From Escherichia phage teqhad, in the sequence record NC_054933.1: a DNA stretch of 64,000 nucleotides, one strand, 5' to 3'. The position numbers and the translations under genes are program-made. The notes beneath the pieces are model-generated. The model had not been told where the DNA came from. It made no database searches and saw only the letters and a list, made by a program, of their open reading frames with translations. This document shows, piece after piece, positions 3,263-63,492 of this stretch. The first letter of the stretch is position 1; the number at the start of each line of letters is the position of its first letter.

Positions 3263-3501
3263 TGGAAGGTTTAATTGAAGCTATTAAATCAAACGACCTC
3301 GTAGCCGCTCGTAAATTATTTGCTGAAGCCATGGCTGCAAGAACGACTGATTTAATCAAAGAAGAAAAAATCGCTATCGCTCGTAATTTCTTAATCGAAG
3401 GTGAAGAACCTGAAGACGAGGATGAAGATGATGACGAAGATAGTGATGATAAAGACGACAAAAAAGACAAAGACTCTGACGAAGACGAGGATGATGAATA
3501 A
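3262..3501 (+). CDS. 67: prohead core protein gp67 with polyacidic C-terminal tail
   Basis: 79 aa, [13 protein letters not shown]..., D/E-rich tail; stop/start overlap with gene 20. Confidence 0.9.
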
Positions 3502-55955: not shown

Positions 55956-58900
55956 ATGGCTACTTTAAAACAAATACAATTTAAAAGAAGCAAAACCGCA
56001 GGTGCACGTCCTGCTGCTTCAGTATTAGCCGAAGGTGAATTGGCTATAAATTTAAAAGATAGAACAATTTTTACTAAAGACGATTCAGGAAATATCATTG
56101 ACTTAAGCATTTCCGCTGGCGGTAATATCAGTGGTAATATCACTCAAACTGGTGATTATACACAGACTGGAAAATTTAATTTAATTGGTCCGCAAATTGT
56201 AGCAAGCGGTGGATATATTGAGTTTAATTATCGTACTACTGGAAGTGGGGCTTGGTCCGGTCAACATACTGCGAAAGCTCCAATTTTTGTAGATTTAAGC
56301 TCAGCTACTTCCACATCTGAATATAATCCTATAATTAAACAGCGCTTTAAAGATGGAACTTTTTCATTAGGTACTTTAGTTTCTGAAGGTTCGTTGAAGA
56401 TTCATTATATCAATGAATCTGGCGATTCGAAATATTGGACGTTTCGACGTGACGGCGGATTTACTGTTGACGGTGGAGGTTTAGCAGTATCAGGAGGTAG
56501 TATAACTACATCTGGAAATATTGCAGCTATTGGAAATATTACTTCGCCTCAGATTAATACTAAAAATATTATTTTAGATACAAAAGCATTTGGACAATAC
56601 GATTCGCAATCATTAGTTCAATATGTTTATCCTGGAACAGGCGAAGAAAATGGTATAAACTATCTTCGTAAAGTTCGAGCTAAATCAGGCGGTACAATTT
56701 ATCATGAATTAGCTTCTGCGCAAACCGGAAAAAGTGATGAACTTTCTTGGTGGACTGGTAATACAGCCGTTAATAAACAAATGGGTCTTCGTAATGATGG
56801 GGCTTTAGTATTACGACGCTCACTCGCAATTGGTACAATTACAACAGATGAAAACATTAATAACTACGGCTCCGCTGGAGCAATGGGCGAATGTTATATA
56901 GTTATCGGTGATGCATCAACAGGCTTATCATACAAAAAAACTGGAGTATATGATTTAGTTGCTAGTGGTCTTTCTTTAGCATCTATTACTCCTGATAGTT
57001 TCCGTAGTACCCGTAAAGCGATTTTTGGTCGTTCCGAGGACCAAGGTACAACATGGATTATGCCTGGAACCAACGCCGCGTTTTTATCGGTTCAAACACA
57101 AGCTGATGAAAACACTGCTGGAGACGGCCAGACGCATATTGGCTATAACTCAGGCGGAAAAATGAACCACTATTTCCGTGGTAAAGGCAAAACTAATATT
57201 AATACTCAAGAAGGCATGGAAGTTAACCCGGGTATTTTGAAATTGGTAACTGGCTCTAATAATGTAATGTTTTATGCTGATGGCGGTATTACATCTGTTA
57301 AGCAGCTTTCAATATATAATGGCATATATTTAGCAGCTAATAATTCTACTGCTGGGCTAACATTCGCTCCAACTACTACAATTGATGGCACTAAGCAAAT
57401 TTTGTGGGAAGGCGGTACTCGTGCTGGTCAGAATAAAAGCTATGTAACTGTTAAAGCATGGGGTAATTCATTTAACGCATCTGGCGATCGTAATCGTGAA
57501 ACGGTTTTTGAAGTAGCTGATGGACAAGGATATTATTTTTATTCACAGCGTGTGGCTCCAAGTGGCTCTGAAACTACTGGGCCTGTTGTAACCCAGTTCA
57601 ATGGACAAGTTAATGCTAGAGGAAGTATTATTACTGACGGAAGTTTTAAAGTTAATGGATTAAGCACTTTAGTCGGTAATGTTACCATGTCTAATGGTTT
57701 GTTTGTCCAAGGTGGTTCTTCTATTACTGGACAAGTAAAAATTGGTGGAACTGCTGATGCATTAAGAATTTGGAATGCCGAATACGGTGCTATTTTCCGT
57801 CGCTCAGAAACAGCATTACATATTATCCCGACTCCTAAAGATGCCGGTGAAAGTGGTGGAATAAGTAATCTCCGCCCACTTAGTATTAGTCTTAATAATG
57901 GTATGGTACAAATGCGCCATTCTGTTACGTTAGGCGATGATGGCGCTGGCGGTAATATGATTACTGTGGACAACGATACCAAACTTGTTGTTGTTACTAG
58001 TAATAGTCGCATTTCTCCTAATTACCGTATGCAGGTAGGACAAGCAGCTTATATTGATGCTGAATGTACTGACACAGTTCGCCCGGCTGGTGCAGGGTCT
58101 TTTGCTTCACAAAATAATGAAAACGTTCGTGCTCCATTCTATATGAATATTAATCGTACAGATACAAGTACTTACGTTCCTATTTTGAAACAACGATATG
58201 TCCAAGGAAACAGTTGTTATTCTCTGGGAACTCTAATTAACGGCGGTAACTTCAGAGTTCATTATCATGAAGGCGGCGATGGCGGTTCGACTGGCGCTAT
58301 TATAAAGGATTTAGGTTGGGAATTTACCAAAAATGGTGATTTTATATCTCCTAAGCGTGTTTCTGCTGGTGGTTCAGTTTATTTAGGTACAGACGGCAAT
58401 ATTACAGGTGGTTCTGGCAATTTTGCTAATTTAAACAGTACAATTGAATCACTTAAAACCGATATTGTATCGAGTTACCCAATCGGTGCTCCTATTCCAT
58501 GGCCAACGGATACTCCTCCTGACGGTTACGCTATTATGGAAGGCCAGACTTTTGATAAGTCTGCATACCCAAAATTGGCTATGGCTTACCCATCTGGCGT
58601 AATTCCAGATATGCGCGGGCAAACTATTAAAGGTAAACCAAGTGGTCGAGCTGTATTAAGCGCAGAAGCCGATGGTGTTAAGGCTCATAGCCATAGTGCA
58701 TCGGCTTCAAGTACTGACTTGGGTACTAAAACTACGTCGAGTTTTGATTATGGTACTAAGACGACAAGTAGCTTTGACTATGGCACTAAGACTAGCAATA
58801 CCACAGGTAACCACTCTCATACTGTAAGCGGTACTACGAGTTCTGCTGGTGCACACCAACATGCGCGCTCAGGTCCTCAGATACAAGCCGGCATACCCAA

Positions 58901-59231
58901 TAACATATTCTATGACGGATATAATAGTGTAGGTGCAAACGCCAACGCTAAATTCACTGGAACCGTGAACGGTGCTACTGCAGGGTCGAATATAGCCAAA
59001 ACTTCTTCAGACGGTGCTCATACTCATACTTGGTCTGGTACTACAAGCACTACAGGTAACCATGCTCACACAGTAGGTATTGGTGCTCATACCCATACTG
59101 TAGGTATCGGTGCTCATACCCACACGGTAGCAATTGGCTCGCATGGTCATACTATCACTGTAAATAGTACAGGTAATACAGAAAACACGGTTAAAAACAT
59201 TGCTTTTAACTATATCGTTCGTTTAGCATAA
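55956..59231 (+). CDS. 37: long tail fibre distal subunit gp37 (receptor-binding tip with His-x-His repeats)
   Basis: 1091 aa; C-terminal GxHxH repeats and ...NYIVRLA end. Confidence 0.92.
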
Positions 59232-59258: not shown

Positions 59259-59810
59259 ATGAAAATATATCATTATTATTTTGACACTAAAGAATTTTAC
59301 AAAGAAGAAAATTACAAACCGGTTAAAGGCCTCGGTCTTCCTGCTCATTCAACAATTAAAAAACCTTTAGAACCTAAAGAAGGATATGCAGTTGTATTTG
59401 ATGAACGTACTCAGGATTGGATTTATGAAGAAGACCATCGCGGAAAACGAGCATGGACTTTTAATAAAGAAGAAATTTTTATAAGTGAAATTGGAAGCCC
59501 GGTTGGTATAACTTTTGATGAGCCTGGCGAATTTGATATATGGACTGATGACGGTTGGAAAGAAGACGAAACATATAAGCGAGTTTTAATTCGTAATAGA
59601 AAAATTGAAGAATTATATAAAGAGTTCCAAGTTTTAAATAATATGATTGAAGCTTCTGTCGCCAATAAAAAGGAAAAATTTTATTATAAAAACCTTAAGC
59701 GGTTCTTTGCTCTTTTAGAAAAGCATGAGCATTTAGGTGGTGAATTCCCTTCATGGCCTGAAAAAGAACGGAAACCTTGGTATAAGCGTTTATTCAAGCA
59801 TTACGTATAA
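59259..59810 (+). CDS. 38: tail fibre assembly chaperone gp38 (T4-type)
   Basis: 183 aa; SD-hairpin-AUG initiation region upstream. Confidence 0.88.
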   Translation: MKIYHYYFDTKEFYKEENYKPVKGLGLPAHSTIKKPLEPKEGYAVVFDERTQDWIYEEDHRGKRAWTFNKEEIFISEIGSPVGITFDEPGEFDIWTDDGWKEDETYKRVLIRNRKIEELYKEFQVLNNMIEASVANKKEKFYYKNLKRFFALLEKHEHLGGEFPSWPEKERKPWYKRLFKHYV

Positions 59811-60760: not shown

Positions 60761-60921
60761 TAACTATACCACTCAATTAGTTGACTTTGTTATAATATCA
60801 TCAGACGCTTGATTTGTAAACTGGTCTGTGTTATTTTCTTCAAAAATTTTTTCTACGAATTCCTTGAACGACTTACGTTCCTGAGCTACATTATGCTCGA
60901 TTACTTTTTCAAGATTATGAC

Positions 60922-61200
60922 TCATTCGAAATAATCTTCAATTTCATAATCATGGACGTAAATCATTATAGTTTTTAATACATCATCAATACTTTTTCCT
61001 GGAGCTGGAATTACGTAGAAATATCCTGCTTTTGAGAGGTCTTTATAAGTTCCAATCAAGAAATCATTATTCTCAAGATGTAGTTCTTCAACTAATTCAT
61101 TAACAATTGAATGGTATAGGTTTGGTAGAAACTTATATAGCTTTTCTAGAATATCAATTTTGATTGTGTATTGAACCACGGATTGAGAATCAATAATCAT
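60922..61200 (-). CDS. arn: Arn, inhibitor of McrBC restriction
   Basis: 92 aa, MIIDSQSVVQYTIKIDILEKLYKF... Confidence 0.9.
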   Translation of the reverse strand: MIIDSQSVVQYTIKIDILEKLYKFLPNLYHSIVNELVEELHLENNDFLIGTYKDLSKAGYFYVIPAPGKSIDDVLKTIMIYVHDYEIEDYFE

Positions 61201-61283
61201 AGACCTTCCCCTTATGTTTCTGTTTGCGATTAGATTCTTTAAACGCTTTCTTCTTATCCTTATGAACAGAAGCTTTATTAAAA

Positions 61284-61502
61284 TTATGTTTTGCGACTAA
61301 ATTGTTCATAGTGCTGAATTACCTCTCTCAAACATTTGCATGTGAATGAAAACTTTTTAGCTACACCACATTCAAATATATGTTCTCTTAAATCGCGTGT
61401 ATCGGTATATCCCATCTCAACAATAAAATGCCGTATTAGATTTTTATCTTTATCATTGAGAGAATTAAAATAATCAGATTTTGAATTAATTTCCCTGGCC
61501 AA
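61284..61502 (-). CDS. hypothetical protein (arn.x cluster)
   Basis: 72 aa. Confidence 0.55.
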   Translation of the reverse strand: MAREINSKSDYFNSLNDKDKNLIRHFIVEMGYTDTRDLREHIFECGVAKKFSFTCKCLREVIQHYEQFSRKT

Positions 61503-61782
61503 ATTGAATCACCTTCAGTTGACGTTTTAATTCTTTTATCATTTCTTCGTTCATCGCAATATAAAGATCGCGTAAAGCAGGTTTTAGCATTCCATTTACT
61601 GGAGAACTAAATGGACATACATAATCTTTTCCTACAAGCTTTTTGGCAAATTCCATATCACAAAATTTAAATGCCGGCTCATTCGCATAAATTCCCCAAT
61701 TAGTTGACATCATTTTATTGGCATATTCCAGTGCCTGGATTTGATTCATAATTCCATCGATTTGAAACTTTTTAATATTCAT
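61486..61782 (-). CDS. hypothetical protein (arn.x cluster)
   Basis: 98 aa. Confidence 0.55.
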   Translation of the reverse strand: MNIKKFQIDGIMNQIQALEYANKMMSTNWGIYANEPAFKFCDMEFAKKLVGKDYVCPFSSPVNGMLKPALRDLYIAMNEEMIKELKRQLKVIQFGQGN

Positions 61783-62243
61783 TAGTAAAGGTCCTCAGAG
61801 TAAAGTTCTTTTTCACTACCACCACGTTCAATACGTACTTGTCCAGCGTAAGTTGCAATAATCATTGCTTCTTCACGTGTCCAATAATTACTGTATTGGT
61901 CAATAAACCCTTGGTCATCATCACAAACTTGTTGAGTAACTAATTGAGGTTTAACTACATCTAAAACTTCGGCCATATCTTTAGAATAATGACGAGCACC
62001 TGGAATAATAAGAGTTCGTCCATCTTTTAATTTAAAACGGTTGGCTGCACAGACAATTCGTCGTTGATACTTTTGGTTTTCATCCCAGTACGCAGTCTGC
62101 CAACAGATTTCAGGAACTTCTTTCAGAATATCTTCTTCTGTGCATTTATAACCATGCGTTTTAAATTTTTCAACAAGACTTTCTGGAGTTTCACGAGATA
62201 AAGGAACATTCAGCATTTTTAAACGATTGATAAATGGGTTCAT
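61782..62243 (-). CDS. hypothetical protein (arn.x cluster)
   Basis: 153 aa. Confidence 0.6.
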
Positions 62244-62569
62244 TTAAACCATCCTTTAATACGTTGCCACAAAGTTTTCTGCTGAGCTCTGTTAACACCA
62301 ATTGAACGAATAACCGGTTGAGATTCCTGGAATTCTTTATAATCAGCAAGGTAAATTTCGTAAGCTGCATCCGTAAATGAACTTATCGCTGCCATAAAAT
62401 TATTACGAATACCTACTGGAGCATCTTTACTTTCACGAATAATCATGTATTTACCAGTCTTAATCTTTACGATAGTTCCAAGATAAGCTCCATGATACCA
62501 GATGTCCCAACCCTCTTGTGTAGGTTCTGCACAACGACGAAGTTCATTAACAATTTCTAACTTGTTCAT
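62240..62569 (-). CDS. hypothetical protein (arn.x cluster)
   Basis: 109 aa. Confidence 0.55.
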
Positions 62570-62579
62570 TATTTATTCC

Positions 62580-63215
62580 TCACAGTTCAGATGCTACAGT
62601 GATTACTGCTTCAATGTTTTCTGCTGAGCGTTTAATGTCAAGATACACATTACCGTTTTTAGCGATTTTACATGACATTCCGATATCAGTAAATTTCTGA
62701 ATATGATGTTCCATCATTTTGTATCCAAAAATTCGCATATTTCCATTGTTGTTAATTTCAAAATTGCGAATTCCATGTGTACGTTTTTCTAAAATGGCAA
62801 GATAATTACTACGATAAGTTTCAACCTTTTTAAGAACAAATCCATTTTCATCTAGCAGTTTTAACATGAGGTCTTTATCTTCTTCCATATCAGAAGTAAT
62901 CTCACGAGCTTTACGAGTTGCTCGTTTTTTCAGAAGTTCTGGAGCATTTTCCTGTGCATATAAAGTTGCTGCATTTGAAATAATATCTTGTGCTTCACCC
63001 GTGATGATTAATCCATCACCTGATTTCTCTACCAGGCCTTTTTTAATTAATACCCCAATATTACTATTAACTACTGCGTTACCTAAATCTGGATGCACCT
63101 CACGAACTTCTGCAGCTGTAATGAAATCTTTCTTAGCAATGGTAATTAAAATCGCAGCGGTTTTTTCATTCAGAACATCGTTAGAAGCTTTGATGATGTA
63201 AGTTACTTTAGACAT
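62580..63215 (-). CDS. motA: middle-transcription activator MotA
   Basis: 211 aa, MSKVTYIIKASNDVLNEKTAAILITIAKKDF... Confidence 0.93.
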   Translation of the reverse strand: MSKVTYIIKASNDVLNEKTAAILITIAKKDFITAAEVREVHPDLGNAVVNSNIGVLIKKGLVEKSGDGLIITGEAQDIISNAATLYAQENAPELLKKRATRKAREITSDMEEDKDLMLKLLDENGFVLKKVETYRSNYLAILEKRTHGIRNFEINNNGNMRIFGYKMMEHHIQKFTDIGMSCKIAKNGNVYLDIKRSAENIEAVITVASEL

Positions 63216-63255: not shown

Positions 63256-63286
63256 TATAGTACCACAGTATGCTTTGGTTGTAAAC
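63256..63286 (-). promoter_or_regulatory. early promoter for motA within PeSL-like cassette
   Basis: Minus strand GGTTTACA ... TGGTACTAT, preceded by terminator 63318-63337. Confidence 0.55.
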
Positions 63287-63317
63287 CGTTTTGTGAAAAA
63301 ATTTTTGAAATAAAAAA

Positions 63318-63337
63318 GGGAGAGCCTCGGCTCTCCC
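63318..63337 (-). terminator. terminator upstream of motA early promoter
   Basis: GGGAGAGC-CUCG-GCUCUCCC with flanking A/T runs. Confidence 0.65.
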
Positions 63338-63342
63338 TAAAA

Positions 63343-63492
63343 TTACTGCATGACTGTGATAACTGTCATGATAACACGTTGAATGCCGAACGCAAGAAGA
63401 CCTCCTGCTACGGCTGGAACAACACCTAAACCCGCCAGTAAAATGCTACCGGATACTAATGCAGCGCTTGTAATACCTATGAATGGACTCAT
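63343..63492 (-). CDS. small hydrophobic membrane protein, 49 aa, not in ORF track
   Basis: Hand translation MSPFIGITSAALVSGSILLAGLGVVPAVAGGLLAFGIQRVIMTVITVMQ; ATG overlaps gene 52 stop as ATGA. Confidence 0.5.
   Translation of the reverse strand: MSPFIGITSAALVSGSILLAGLGVVPAVAGGLLAFGIQRVIMTVITVMQ

Follow-up and report, generated by a model that had tools for sequence, protein, structure and literature searches.

A conserved 39-residue gene of the T-even arn operon and its possible relation to the ribosome-rescue factor ArfA

What do the small open reading frames (ORFs) between arn and motA of T-even phages encode, and do they form a counter-defence cassette beside the anti-restriction gene arn? 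The question was raised by a 64,000-nucleotide (nt) stretch of Escherichia phage teqhad (NC_054933.1; hereafter the window), where a sequence-only reading had marked four ORFs of 72, 98, 153 and 109 amino acids (aa) between Arn and MotA, together with a basic 39-aa micro-ORF overlapping the arn start, as good anti-defence candidates. The window is from a T4-like phage: positions 60900-62650 showed 99.8% DNA identity to Escherichia phage vB_EcoM_G8, with matches in 642 phage records. The segment 61190-62569 is the T-even 'arn operon', on the minus strand downstream of motA. The minus-strand order is motA, ORFs of 109, 153, 98 and 72 aa, the 39-aa ORF, arn, asiA.1 and asiA (AsiA matching PF09010), syntenic with motA, arn.4 to arn.1, arn, asiA.1 and asiA of T4. 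All five ORFs were found where that reading had placed them, the micro-ORF with the sequence it had quoted. Judged from sequence and position, the four larger ones are the already known T4 genes arn.1 to arn.4, orthologues in the same order and position. Their description as genes of unknown function was accurate: a preprint on the T2 arn operon (June 2026) reported arn.4-arn.3-arn.2-arn.1-arn as a single abundant transcript, with a known function for Arn only, and called arn.1 to arn.4 uncharacterised.

A sixth gene in the arn operon

The micro-ORF matched the Pfam family DUF7230 (PF23876) over residues 2-35 with 44.9 bits (cut-off 27) and the 39-aa profile phrog_1359 with an E-value of 5.2e-23, and 134 of 134 diverse relatives matched DUF7230 as well. 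A tblastn search of 50,697 phage records, from which all record counts given here derive, found it in 1386 records, single copy per genome and once in the window, and a profile search of 1.84 billion representative proteins returned 508 clusters (50% identity level). Where DUF7230 occurs in longer proteins, no informative partner domain was found among the fusions. Some other genomes annotate the homologue as hypothetical. The literature search found no paper on DUF7230, and the function of phage ArfA, discussed below, was found only as a genome-note annotation.

The family consensus reads N-x-V-A-K-H-(x2-4)-F-N-K-A-x-V-x-x-D-R-K-K-...-R-K-x-K-H-K-G-K. Conservation within DUF7230 is highest in the N-terminal motif N.VAKH..FN.A, and residues R27, K28, K30, H31 and K32 were each at least 90% conserved among 74 sequences. 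The micro-ORF peptide has a net charge of about +9, and its reading frame ends at its own TGA stop codon (61190-61192), which the start of arn overlaps. Over micro-ORF codons 10-35, where no other gene overlaps, the pairwise differences among eight phages numbered 134, 125 and 359 at codon positions 1, 2 and 3, respectively. By these sequence criteria, the micro-ORF is a real, translated-looking and under-annotated gene, the sixth of the arn operon.

This gene is not tied to arn, being retained in the phages VR26, UGJNEcP3 and UPEC07 (Gaprivervirus and Dhakavirus phages), in all of which arn.1 and arn are missing. Further homologues were found in RB43, in Klebsiella phages, in KVP40-like Vibrio phages and in phi92-like phages, where the homologue lies beside a tRNA cluster.

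All five ORFs gave full-length matches to PHROG families (E-values from 5e-23 to 1e-73). Arn.3, the most widespread gene of the island, was found in 1580 phage records, followed by the micro-ORF, Arn.4 (1000), Arn.2 (944) and Arn.1 (806), and Arn itself in 483 records only, all from Tequatrovirus and all at least 90% identical. The five ORFs are conserved protein-coding genes, and the explanation that they are chance ORFs was rejected by the PHROG matches, the record counts and, for the micro-ORF, the codon-position bias.

Gene content between motA and asiA varied among T4-like genera, with extra small ORFs and with loss of arn and arn.1; in CkP1, a different ORF replaces arn.1. The micro-ORF and arn.2 to arn.4 were mostly kept across these intervals.

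A candidate link to ArfA and its alternatives

Remote-homology searches, which the sequence-only reading had proposed for each ORF, gave a family-level link for the micro-ORF and none for Arn.1 or Arn.4. The link is to ArfA (PF03889), the bacterial alternative ribosome-rescue factor. The metagenomic DUF7230 member P0102, from a 603-nt contig that provides no genomic context, scored 30.8 bits with DUF7230 and 28.1 bits with ArfA, both above the curated cut-offs. The annotated ArfA of Pseudoalteromonas phage J2-1 reached 41.3 bits with ArfA (whole model) and 28.6 bits with DUF7230, again above both cut-offs, and an ORF of Caulobacter phage Cr30 reached 27.2 bits with ArfA and 15.5 bits with DUF7230 (E-value of 0.02), passing the ArfA cut-off only. 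Shuffling the C-terminal half abolished the DUF7230 match of J2-1 and the ArfA match of P0102, each in five of five trials; composition alone thus does not explain the cross-hits, which require the order of the residues.

At the profile level, 133 DUF7230 sequences (P0102 left out) were compared by hhalign with a mixed ArfA profile built from bacterial and phage sequences, whose diversity came from phage ArfA ORFs, the bacterial ArfA searches having given only Enterobacteriaceae sequences with at least 79% identity. The comparison yielded a collinear 49-column alignment with a score of 16.5, which was reached by none of 200 column-shuffled ArfA profiles (mean = 8.2, standard deviation = 1.8, maximum = 13.4); the reversed profile scored 7.7. 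In this register, residues R27-K28-Q29-K30-H31 of the micro-ORF fall on R41-K42-G43-K44-H45 of ArfA.

Genuine ArfA genes were detected in phages by tblastn with E. coli ArfA, namely in Arash (Salmonella), pf16 (Pseudomonas), the T4-like Cr30 (Caulobacter), J2-1 (Pseudoalteromonas), Bambus (Brevundimonas) and RsoM2USA (Ralstonia). Such ORFs, located in the extracted stretches L094 (Arash; 2417-2641), L095 (approximately 2486-2638), L096 (approximately 2453-2617) and L099 (approximately 1459-1656), frequently go unannotated or carry a wrong name. Arash gp99c bears the label 'ribosomal protein L2', in pf16 and RsoM2USA a coding sequence (CDS) on the opposite strand is annotated in place of the ArfA ORF, and most of the Cr30 ORF lies in a stretch without a called CDS. 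The phi92-like DUF7230 gene and the Arash ArfA gene are both found just downstream of tRNA clusters (regions 303-2674 of L007 and 595-2641 of L094, respectively), an adjacency that may reflect a shared translation-related neighbourhood, in two cases only.

The mRNA tunnel accommodates residues 31-48 of ArfA; truncation of ArfA at residue 47 leaves an active protein and truncation after residue 40 an inactive one (PMC5378476); with activity at 47 residues, a 39-aa peptide would therefore be long enough. A Lys-His motif common to ArfA and BrfA contacts U534 of 16S rRNA (PMC6881298, PMC8012679), and the N-terminal ArfA minidomain that opens release factor 2 (RF2) involves I11, A18 and a hydrophobic patch of L19, L24 and F25 (PMC5378476). 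The part common to DUF7230 and ArfA is probably this tunnel-binding tail, which would be homologous in the two families, the N-terminal halves being specific to each.

Several results weigh against a relation between the micro-ORF and ArfA. The micro-ORF peptide had no match to the ArfA model at a Pfam E-value of 10 or below, neither of two family profiles retrieved ArfA from the PDB sequences, a PDB search with the micro-ORF peptide was likewise empty, and hhalign against the single E. coli ArfA gave no alignment. With custom hidden Markov models, the micro-ORF scored -2.5 bits against ArfA, a score reached by 448 of 500 shuffles, in a test perhaps weakened by a poor MAFFT alignment (2.3 bits with the custom model, compared to 28.6 bits with Pfam's DUF7230 model). 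The ArfA profile did not single out the micro-ORF among the six-frame peptides of the window, only one of the 134 diverse DUF7230 members matched ArfA at an E-value of 0.05 or below, and the P-value of the hhalign comparison is only 0.0099. In the hhalign register the peptide begins at approximately ArfA residue 13, without residues 1-12; Lys and His stand where ArfA has A18 and L19, no equivalents could be placed for I11, A18 and L19, and only one conserved Phe lies near L24/F25. The phi92-like subfamily, moreover, has an acidic region at the end of the tail. Finally, both families are short and lysine-rich, and convergence of their basic tails is possible.

Taken together, the micro-ORF of the arn operon is best described as a divergent, phage-borne form of the ArfA type, not as a demonstrated member, a reading to which slightly less than even chances are given. 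DUF7230 would then be a phage branch related to ArfA, with the basic tail D/E-K-K...R-K-x-K-H-K in common. In ArfA, this tail enters the mRNA entry tunnel of a 30S subunit that has stalled where a truncated mRNA ends (3' end) and whose tunnel is therefore empty. The 39-aa peptide would likewise sense ribosomes stranded on cleaved mRNAs, which are abundant in cells infected by T4, its RK.KHK tail docking in the vacant tunnel. The conserved N-terminal motif N-x-V-A-K-H-..-F-N-K-A might then act at the A site, most plausibly by aiding a release factor in freeing the ribosome or, alternatively, by blocking the site, and ribosomes would stay available for phage mRNAs. Such a setting is plausible: T4 destroys host mRNA, and tmRNA is among only four host RNAs that are stable through T4 infection (PMC9697503).

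The fuller proposal, in which an ArfA-derived rescue peptide with an ArfA-type tail and a new N-terminal module is encoded by T-even phages and by more than 1300 other phages of Enterobacterales, Vibrio and Aeromonas, is tentative and on the doubtful side. If true, the phage would itself supply ribosome rescue while host mRNA is destroyed, a possible counter-measure as well to RNA-cleaving abortive-infection systems, and the new N-terminal module might engage release factors unlike ArfA. If the peptide is an ArfA-like binder, the programme by which the phage takes over its host would gain a step of translation quality control, and a simple 39-residue tool for probing stalled ribosomes would be at hand.

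The idea that had drawn attention to the island, according to which every one of these small proteins, as Arn does, counters some host immune system (for example restriction, abortive infection or signalling) within an accessory counter-defence cassette, appears rather unlikely. It is favoured by co-transcription with arn, whose product is proven to inhibit McrBC; the T2 preprint (2026) calls the role of these genes 'conceivably' counter-defence. The variable gene content between motA and asiA is as in accessory regions, and the core fold of Arn.3 recurs in three phage 'large polyvalent protein associated domain' proteins of BFVD (E-values from 3e-3 to 4e-2), the other BFVD matches being uncharacterised phage proteins only. 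Proteins with this domain are thought to act in phage-host conflict. On the other side, no sequence or fold similarity to known anti-defence proteins was found, with no significant Pfam or NCBIfam match to any of them. None of the five ORFs had a significant match among PADLOC families (best E-value of 0.003), NCBIfam gave noise only for all ORFs, and none resembles Arn (no DM_Arn match). Arn.3, Arn.4, Arn.2 and the micro-ORF are distributed two to three times more widely than Arn, also in its absence, and therefore have no fixed tie to the evasion of McrBC; with its strongly basic character, the micro-ORF is the reverse of a DNA mimic. What would connect the island with defence is its adjacency to arn only, a weak link. 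For the micro-ORF, the ArfA-like tail points to the ribosome rather than to a restriction system, and ribosome rescue could itself counter RNA-cleaving defences.

ArfA-like binding might also serve a purpose other than rescue, the peptide occupying the empty mRNA tunnel and so excluding the host's tmRNA-SmpB or its ArfA, or keeping vacant ribosomes from translating. Only the C-terminal tail is common to the two families, the N-terminal halves being family-specific and ArfA residues 1-12 absent, and the ArfA A18T variant, although it binds both RF2 and the ribosome, has no activity, so that binding is separable from activation (PMC5378476). Such an obstructive role is nevertheless judged improbable: the strong conservation of N.VAKH..FN.A points to some specific activity besides plugging of the tunnel, the stability of tmRNA in T4 infection suggests that rescue is wanted (PMC9697503), and phages also carry full-length, bona fide ArfA.

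Equally little probability is given to convergence, with the product a basic peptide that binds nucleic acids generically, or the gene chiefly a device for translational coupling to the arn start, the latter idea arising because the arn Shine-Dalgarno sequence (AAGGGGAAGG) sits inside the last micro-ORF codons (codons 32-35; arn start codon at 61198-61200). Direct similarity tests to ArfA were negative, and in T4, RB43 and RCIP0008 the KGK codons also provide the next gene downstream with its Shine-Dalgarno sequence. This account is opposed by the retention of the protein in the 508 clusters across unrelated genomic contexts, by the homologue of Vibrio phage phi-Grn1, which has no gene for approximately 150 nt downstream, and by the differing phi92-like context, as well as by a codon-position substitution pattern that is that of a protein under selection, by cross-family hits that depend on residue order and by a profile-profile score above all 200 shuffles.

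Gene boundaries, embedded sites and neighbouring features

The features of the locus are listed in Table 1. Successive genes are tightly packed, with a 4-nt overlap (ATGA) at the arn.4/arn.3 junction, TAATG at arn.3/arn.2, overlaps of 17 nt between arn.2 and arn.1, 26 nt between arn.1 and the micro-ORF and 11 nt between the micro-ORF and arn, and ATGA at arn/asiA.1. No terminator-like site was found from motA to asiA on the minus strand.

Table 1. Positions of genes and sites in the arn region of the window.
Feature	Position	Strand	Basis
arn, McrBC inhibitor and DNA mimic	60922..61200	-	PF22134, E 4.4e-54
39-aa micro-ORF MNNLVAKHNFNKASVHKDKKKAFKESNRKQKHKGKVYDY, DUF7230 member, ArfA-like candidate	61190..61309	-	PF23876, phrog_1359
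Micro-ORF codons R27-K28-Q29-K30-H31-K32, near-invariant RK.KHK motif	61214..61231	-	Family conservation
arn.1 homologue, 72 aa, TTG start	61284..61502	-	phrog_4452, E 4.9e-39 over residues 1-72
Putative RNase E site GCATT, 11 nt upstream of Met30	61427..61431	-	Mapped from the T2 preprint
arn.2 homologue, 98 aa	61486..61782	-	phrog_1844, E 7e-51
ArcZ pairing site CCAGGGAAAT, arn.2 +285 to +294, equal to arn.1 codons 2-5	61489..61498	-	Mapped from the T2 preprint
Shine-Dalgarno GAAGGTG, 7 nt 5' of the arn.1 TTG	61510..61516	-	Read from the sequence
arn.3 homologue, 153 aa	61782..62243	-	Full-length PHROG match
arn.4 homologue, 109 aa	62240..62569	-	ATG start with AGGA Shine-Dalgarno; phrog_1594, E 5.9e-54, full length
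motA, upstream neighbour	62580..63215	-	PF09158 and PF09114

The T4 reference annotation gives arn.1 a length of 43 aa and arn.4 a length of 68 aa, compared to 72 and 109 aa in the window. Judged against related sequences, the window lengths are the correct ones and agree more closely with those of the relatives than the T4 reference does, arn.1 comprising 72 codons from a TTG start and arn.4 109 codons. Homologues of arn.1 in Shigella phage JK45, Serratia phage CHI14 and Klebsiella phage phi1_146055 have ATG where the window and T4 have TTG, and Met30, from which T4 arn.1 is called, is replaced by Leu in two of these three. The first 29 residues are conserved (DYFNSLN...I..FI.E.GY), and 801 of 806 phage records covered at least 80% of the 72-aa form. 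For arn.4, lengths of 109-114 aa were found in JK45, VR26, UGJNEcP3, CHI14 and a Klebsiella phage; in T4 itself the start codon position reads ATA, not ATG, and the first 41 codons differ from the window synonymously only. T4 also holds an identical 39-aa ORF between arn.1 and arn, without annotation. These problems of the T4 record NC_000866 (arn.4 start, arn.1 start and 39-aa ORF) lie at 3334-3460 and 2091-2393 of the extracted stretch. T4 is the reference phage, yet a gene kept in approximately 1400 phage genomes is unannotated there and two of its neighbours are mis-delimited.

The longer arn.1 changes the setting of two published sites. The T2 preprint (2026) described a pairing site for the small RNA ArcZ at arn.2 +285 to +294 and a putative RNase E site, GCATT, in a '70-nt intergenic region'. 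That region corresponds to arn.1 codons 7-29 (within 61416-61502 of the window, minus strand). The ArcZ site lies just 3' of the arn.1 TTG and shortly before the final arn.2 codons, and the RNase E site within arn.1 codons R24-H25-F26. Because GCATT spans these codons, the published GcAUU to GcAGG mutation would give Arn.1 the substitutions H25Q and F26V, F26 being invariant. The corrected map bears on the published account of ArcZ-dependent stabilisation of the arn transcript, which draws on the '70-nt intergenic region' and the RNase E site, both sites being coding and the ArcZ site lying on the arn.1 initiation region.

Structure prediction, also proposed in the sequence-only reading, gave a confident alpha/beta model for Arn.3 and a helical hairpin for Arn.2, the Arn.3 model matching no solved structure. 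Arn.3 (156 homologues; precomputed Pfam family PF26092) consists of a variable N-terminal three-helix part (residues 1-42) and a conserved alpha/beta core (residues 44-153), with core motifs including PGxRHYS, DQGFIDQ and LFSEDLY and invariant residues R61, R84, H85, Q111, G112, F113, D115, Y120, R123 and Q135. Its AlphaFold2 model (pLDDT 89.4) had no neighbour in the PDB. Arn.3 is thus modelled as an alpha/beta protein without a solved counterpart, whose invariant polar set looks enzyme-like or ligand-binding-like.

The single-sequence AlphaFold2 model of Arn.2 was all-alpha (helices 3-26 and 68-97; pLDDT 69.7), and a helical hairpin is predicted. The T2 Arn.2 protein has been seen by immunoblot (T2 arn operon preprint, 2026). 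The C-terminal helix of Arn.2, RDLYIAMNEEMIKELKRQLKVIQ (residues 70-94, window 61489-61570), resembles the last helix of RaiA/YfiA. Assignment of Arn.2 to RaiA/YfiA/HPF was rejected: only a 23-residue helix matches (PDB profile E-value of 0.08; hhalign probability of 77.6% over 23 columns), seven homologues gave no Pfam S30AE match, and the all-alpha model differs from the beta-alpha-beta-beta-beta-alpha fold of RaiA. By sequence pattern only, Arn.1, with invariant H41, C45, C57 and H64, looks like a small helix-turn-helix-like protein. Neither Arn.1 nor Arn.4 had a Pfam, NCBIfam or PDB match, and PDB profile searches with Arn.1, Arn.3 and Arn.4 found nothing.

Upstream of motA, 63317-63338 on the minus strand can form a strong hairpin that resembles a terminator (9 bp with 6 GC pairs, and a T-run), followed by a sigma-70-like promoter at 63257-63285, just upstream of motA. 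A homologue of motA.1 encoding a hydrophobic 49-aa protein (63343-63492) lies upstream of the hairpin. Farther away, gp38 of the window (59259-59810; 183 aa) is of the T4 type, an assembly chaperone, and in phage G8, the closest relative in the arn region, gp38 is annotated as a tail-fibre adhesin ('host specificity'), which suggests a mosaic junction near the tail-fibre genes. The gp37 product (55956-59231) has 1091 aa, compared to 1026 aa in T4, and its C-terminal part contains repeated motifs including GxHxH.

Comparison with known systems

The micro-ORF is a full-length member of DUF7230 (PF23876)/phrog_1359, a family without a described function. Compared with ArfA (PF03889; E. coli YhdL), it is similarly very small and intrinsically basic, has D/E-K-K and R-K-x-K-H in common in a collinear alignment, and is of a length comparable with the minimal active length of ArfA (47 residues or fewer); in addition, the three intermediate sequences P0102, J2-1 and Cr30 score on both curated models. 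The micro-ORF differs from ArfA in the absence of the GKGSY motif and of residues 1-12, in the lack of a direct profile match, and in that the RF2-activating hydrophobic core cannot be mapped in it. ArfA is bacterial, is made from a non-stop mRNA (RNase III-cut hairpin) and is repressed by tmRNA (PMC6881298), whereas the micro-ORF is phage-encoded, has its own stop codon and lies in an early/middle operon.

BrfA of Bacillus and ArfT of Francisella are release-factor-dependent rescue peptides of approximately 40-70 aa with a basic tail probing the empty tunnel; their likeness to the micro-ORF is conceptual only, and they are regarded as independent inventions (PMC6881298, PMC8012679). Arn (PF22134) belongs to the same operon and is also small, but the micro-ORF has no sequence similarity to it and is basic, not an acidic DNA mimic. 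Finally, in comparison with the T2 'arn operon', the ArcZ site and GCATT are present in the window at the published spacing, and the operon holds one gene more than described.

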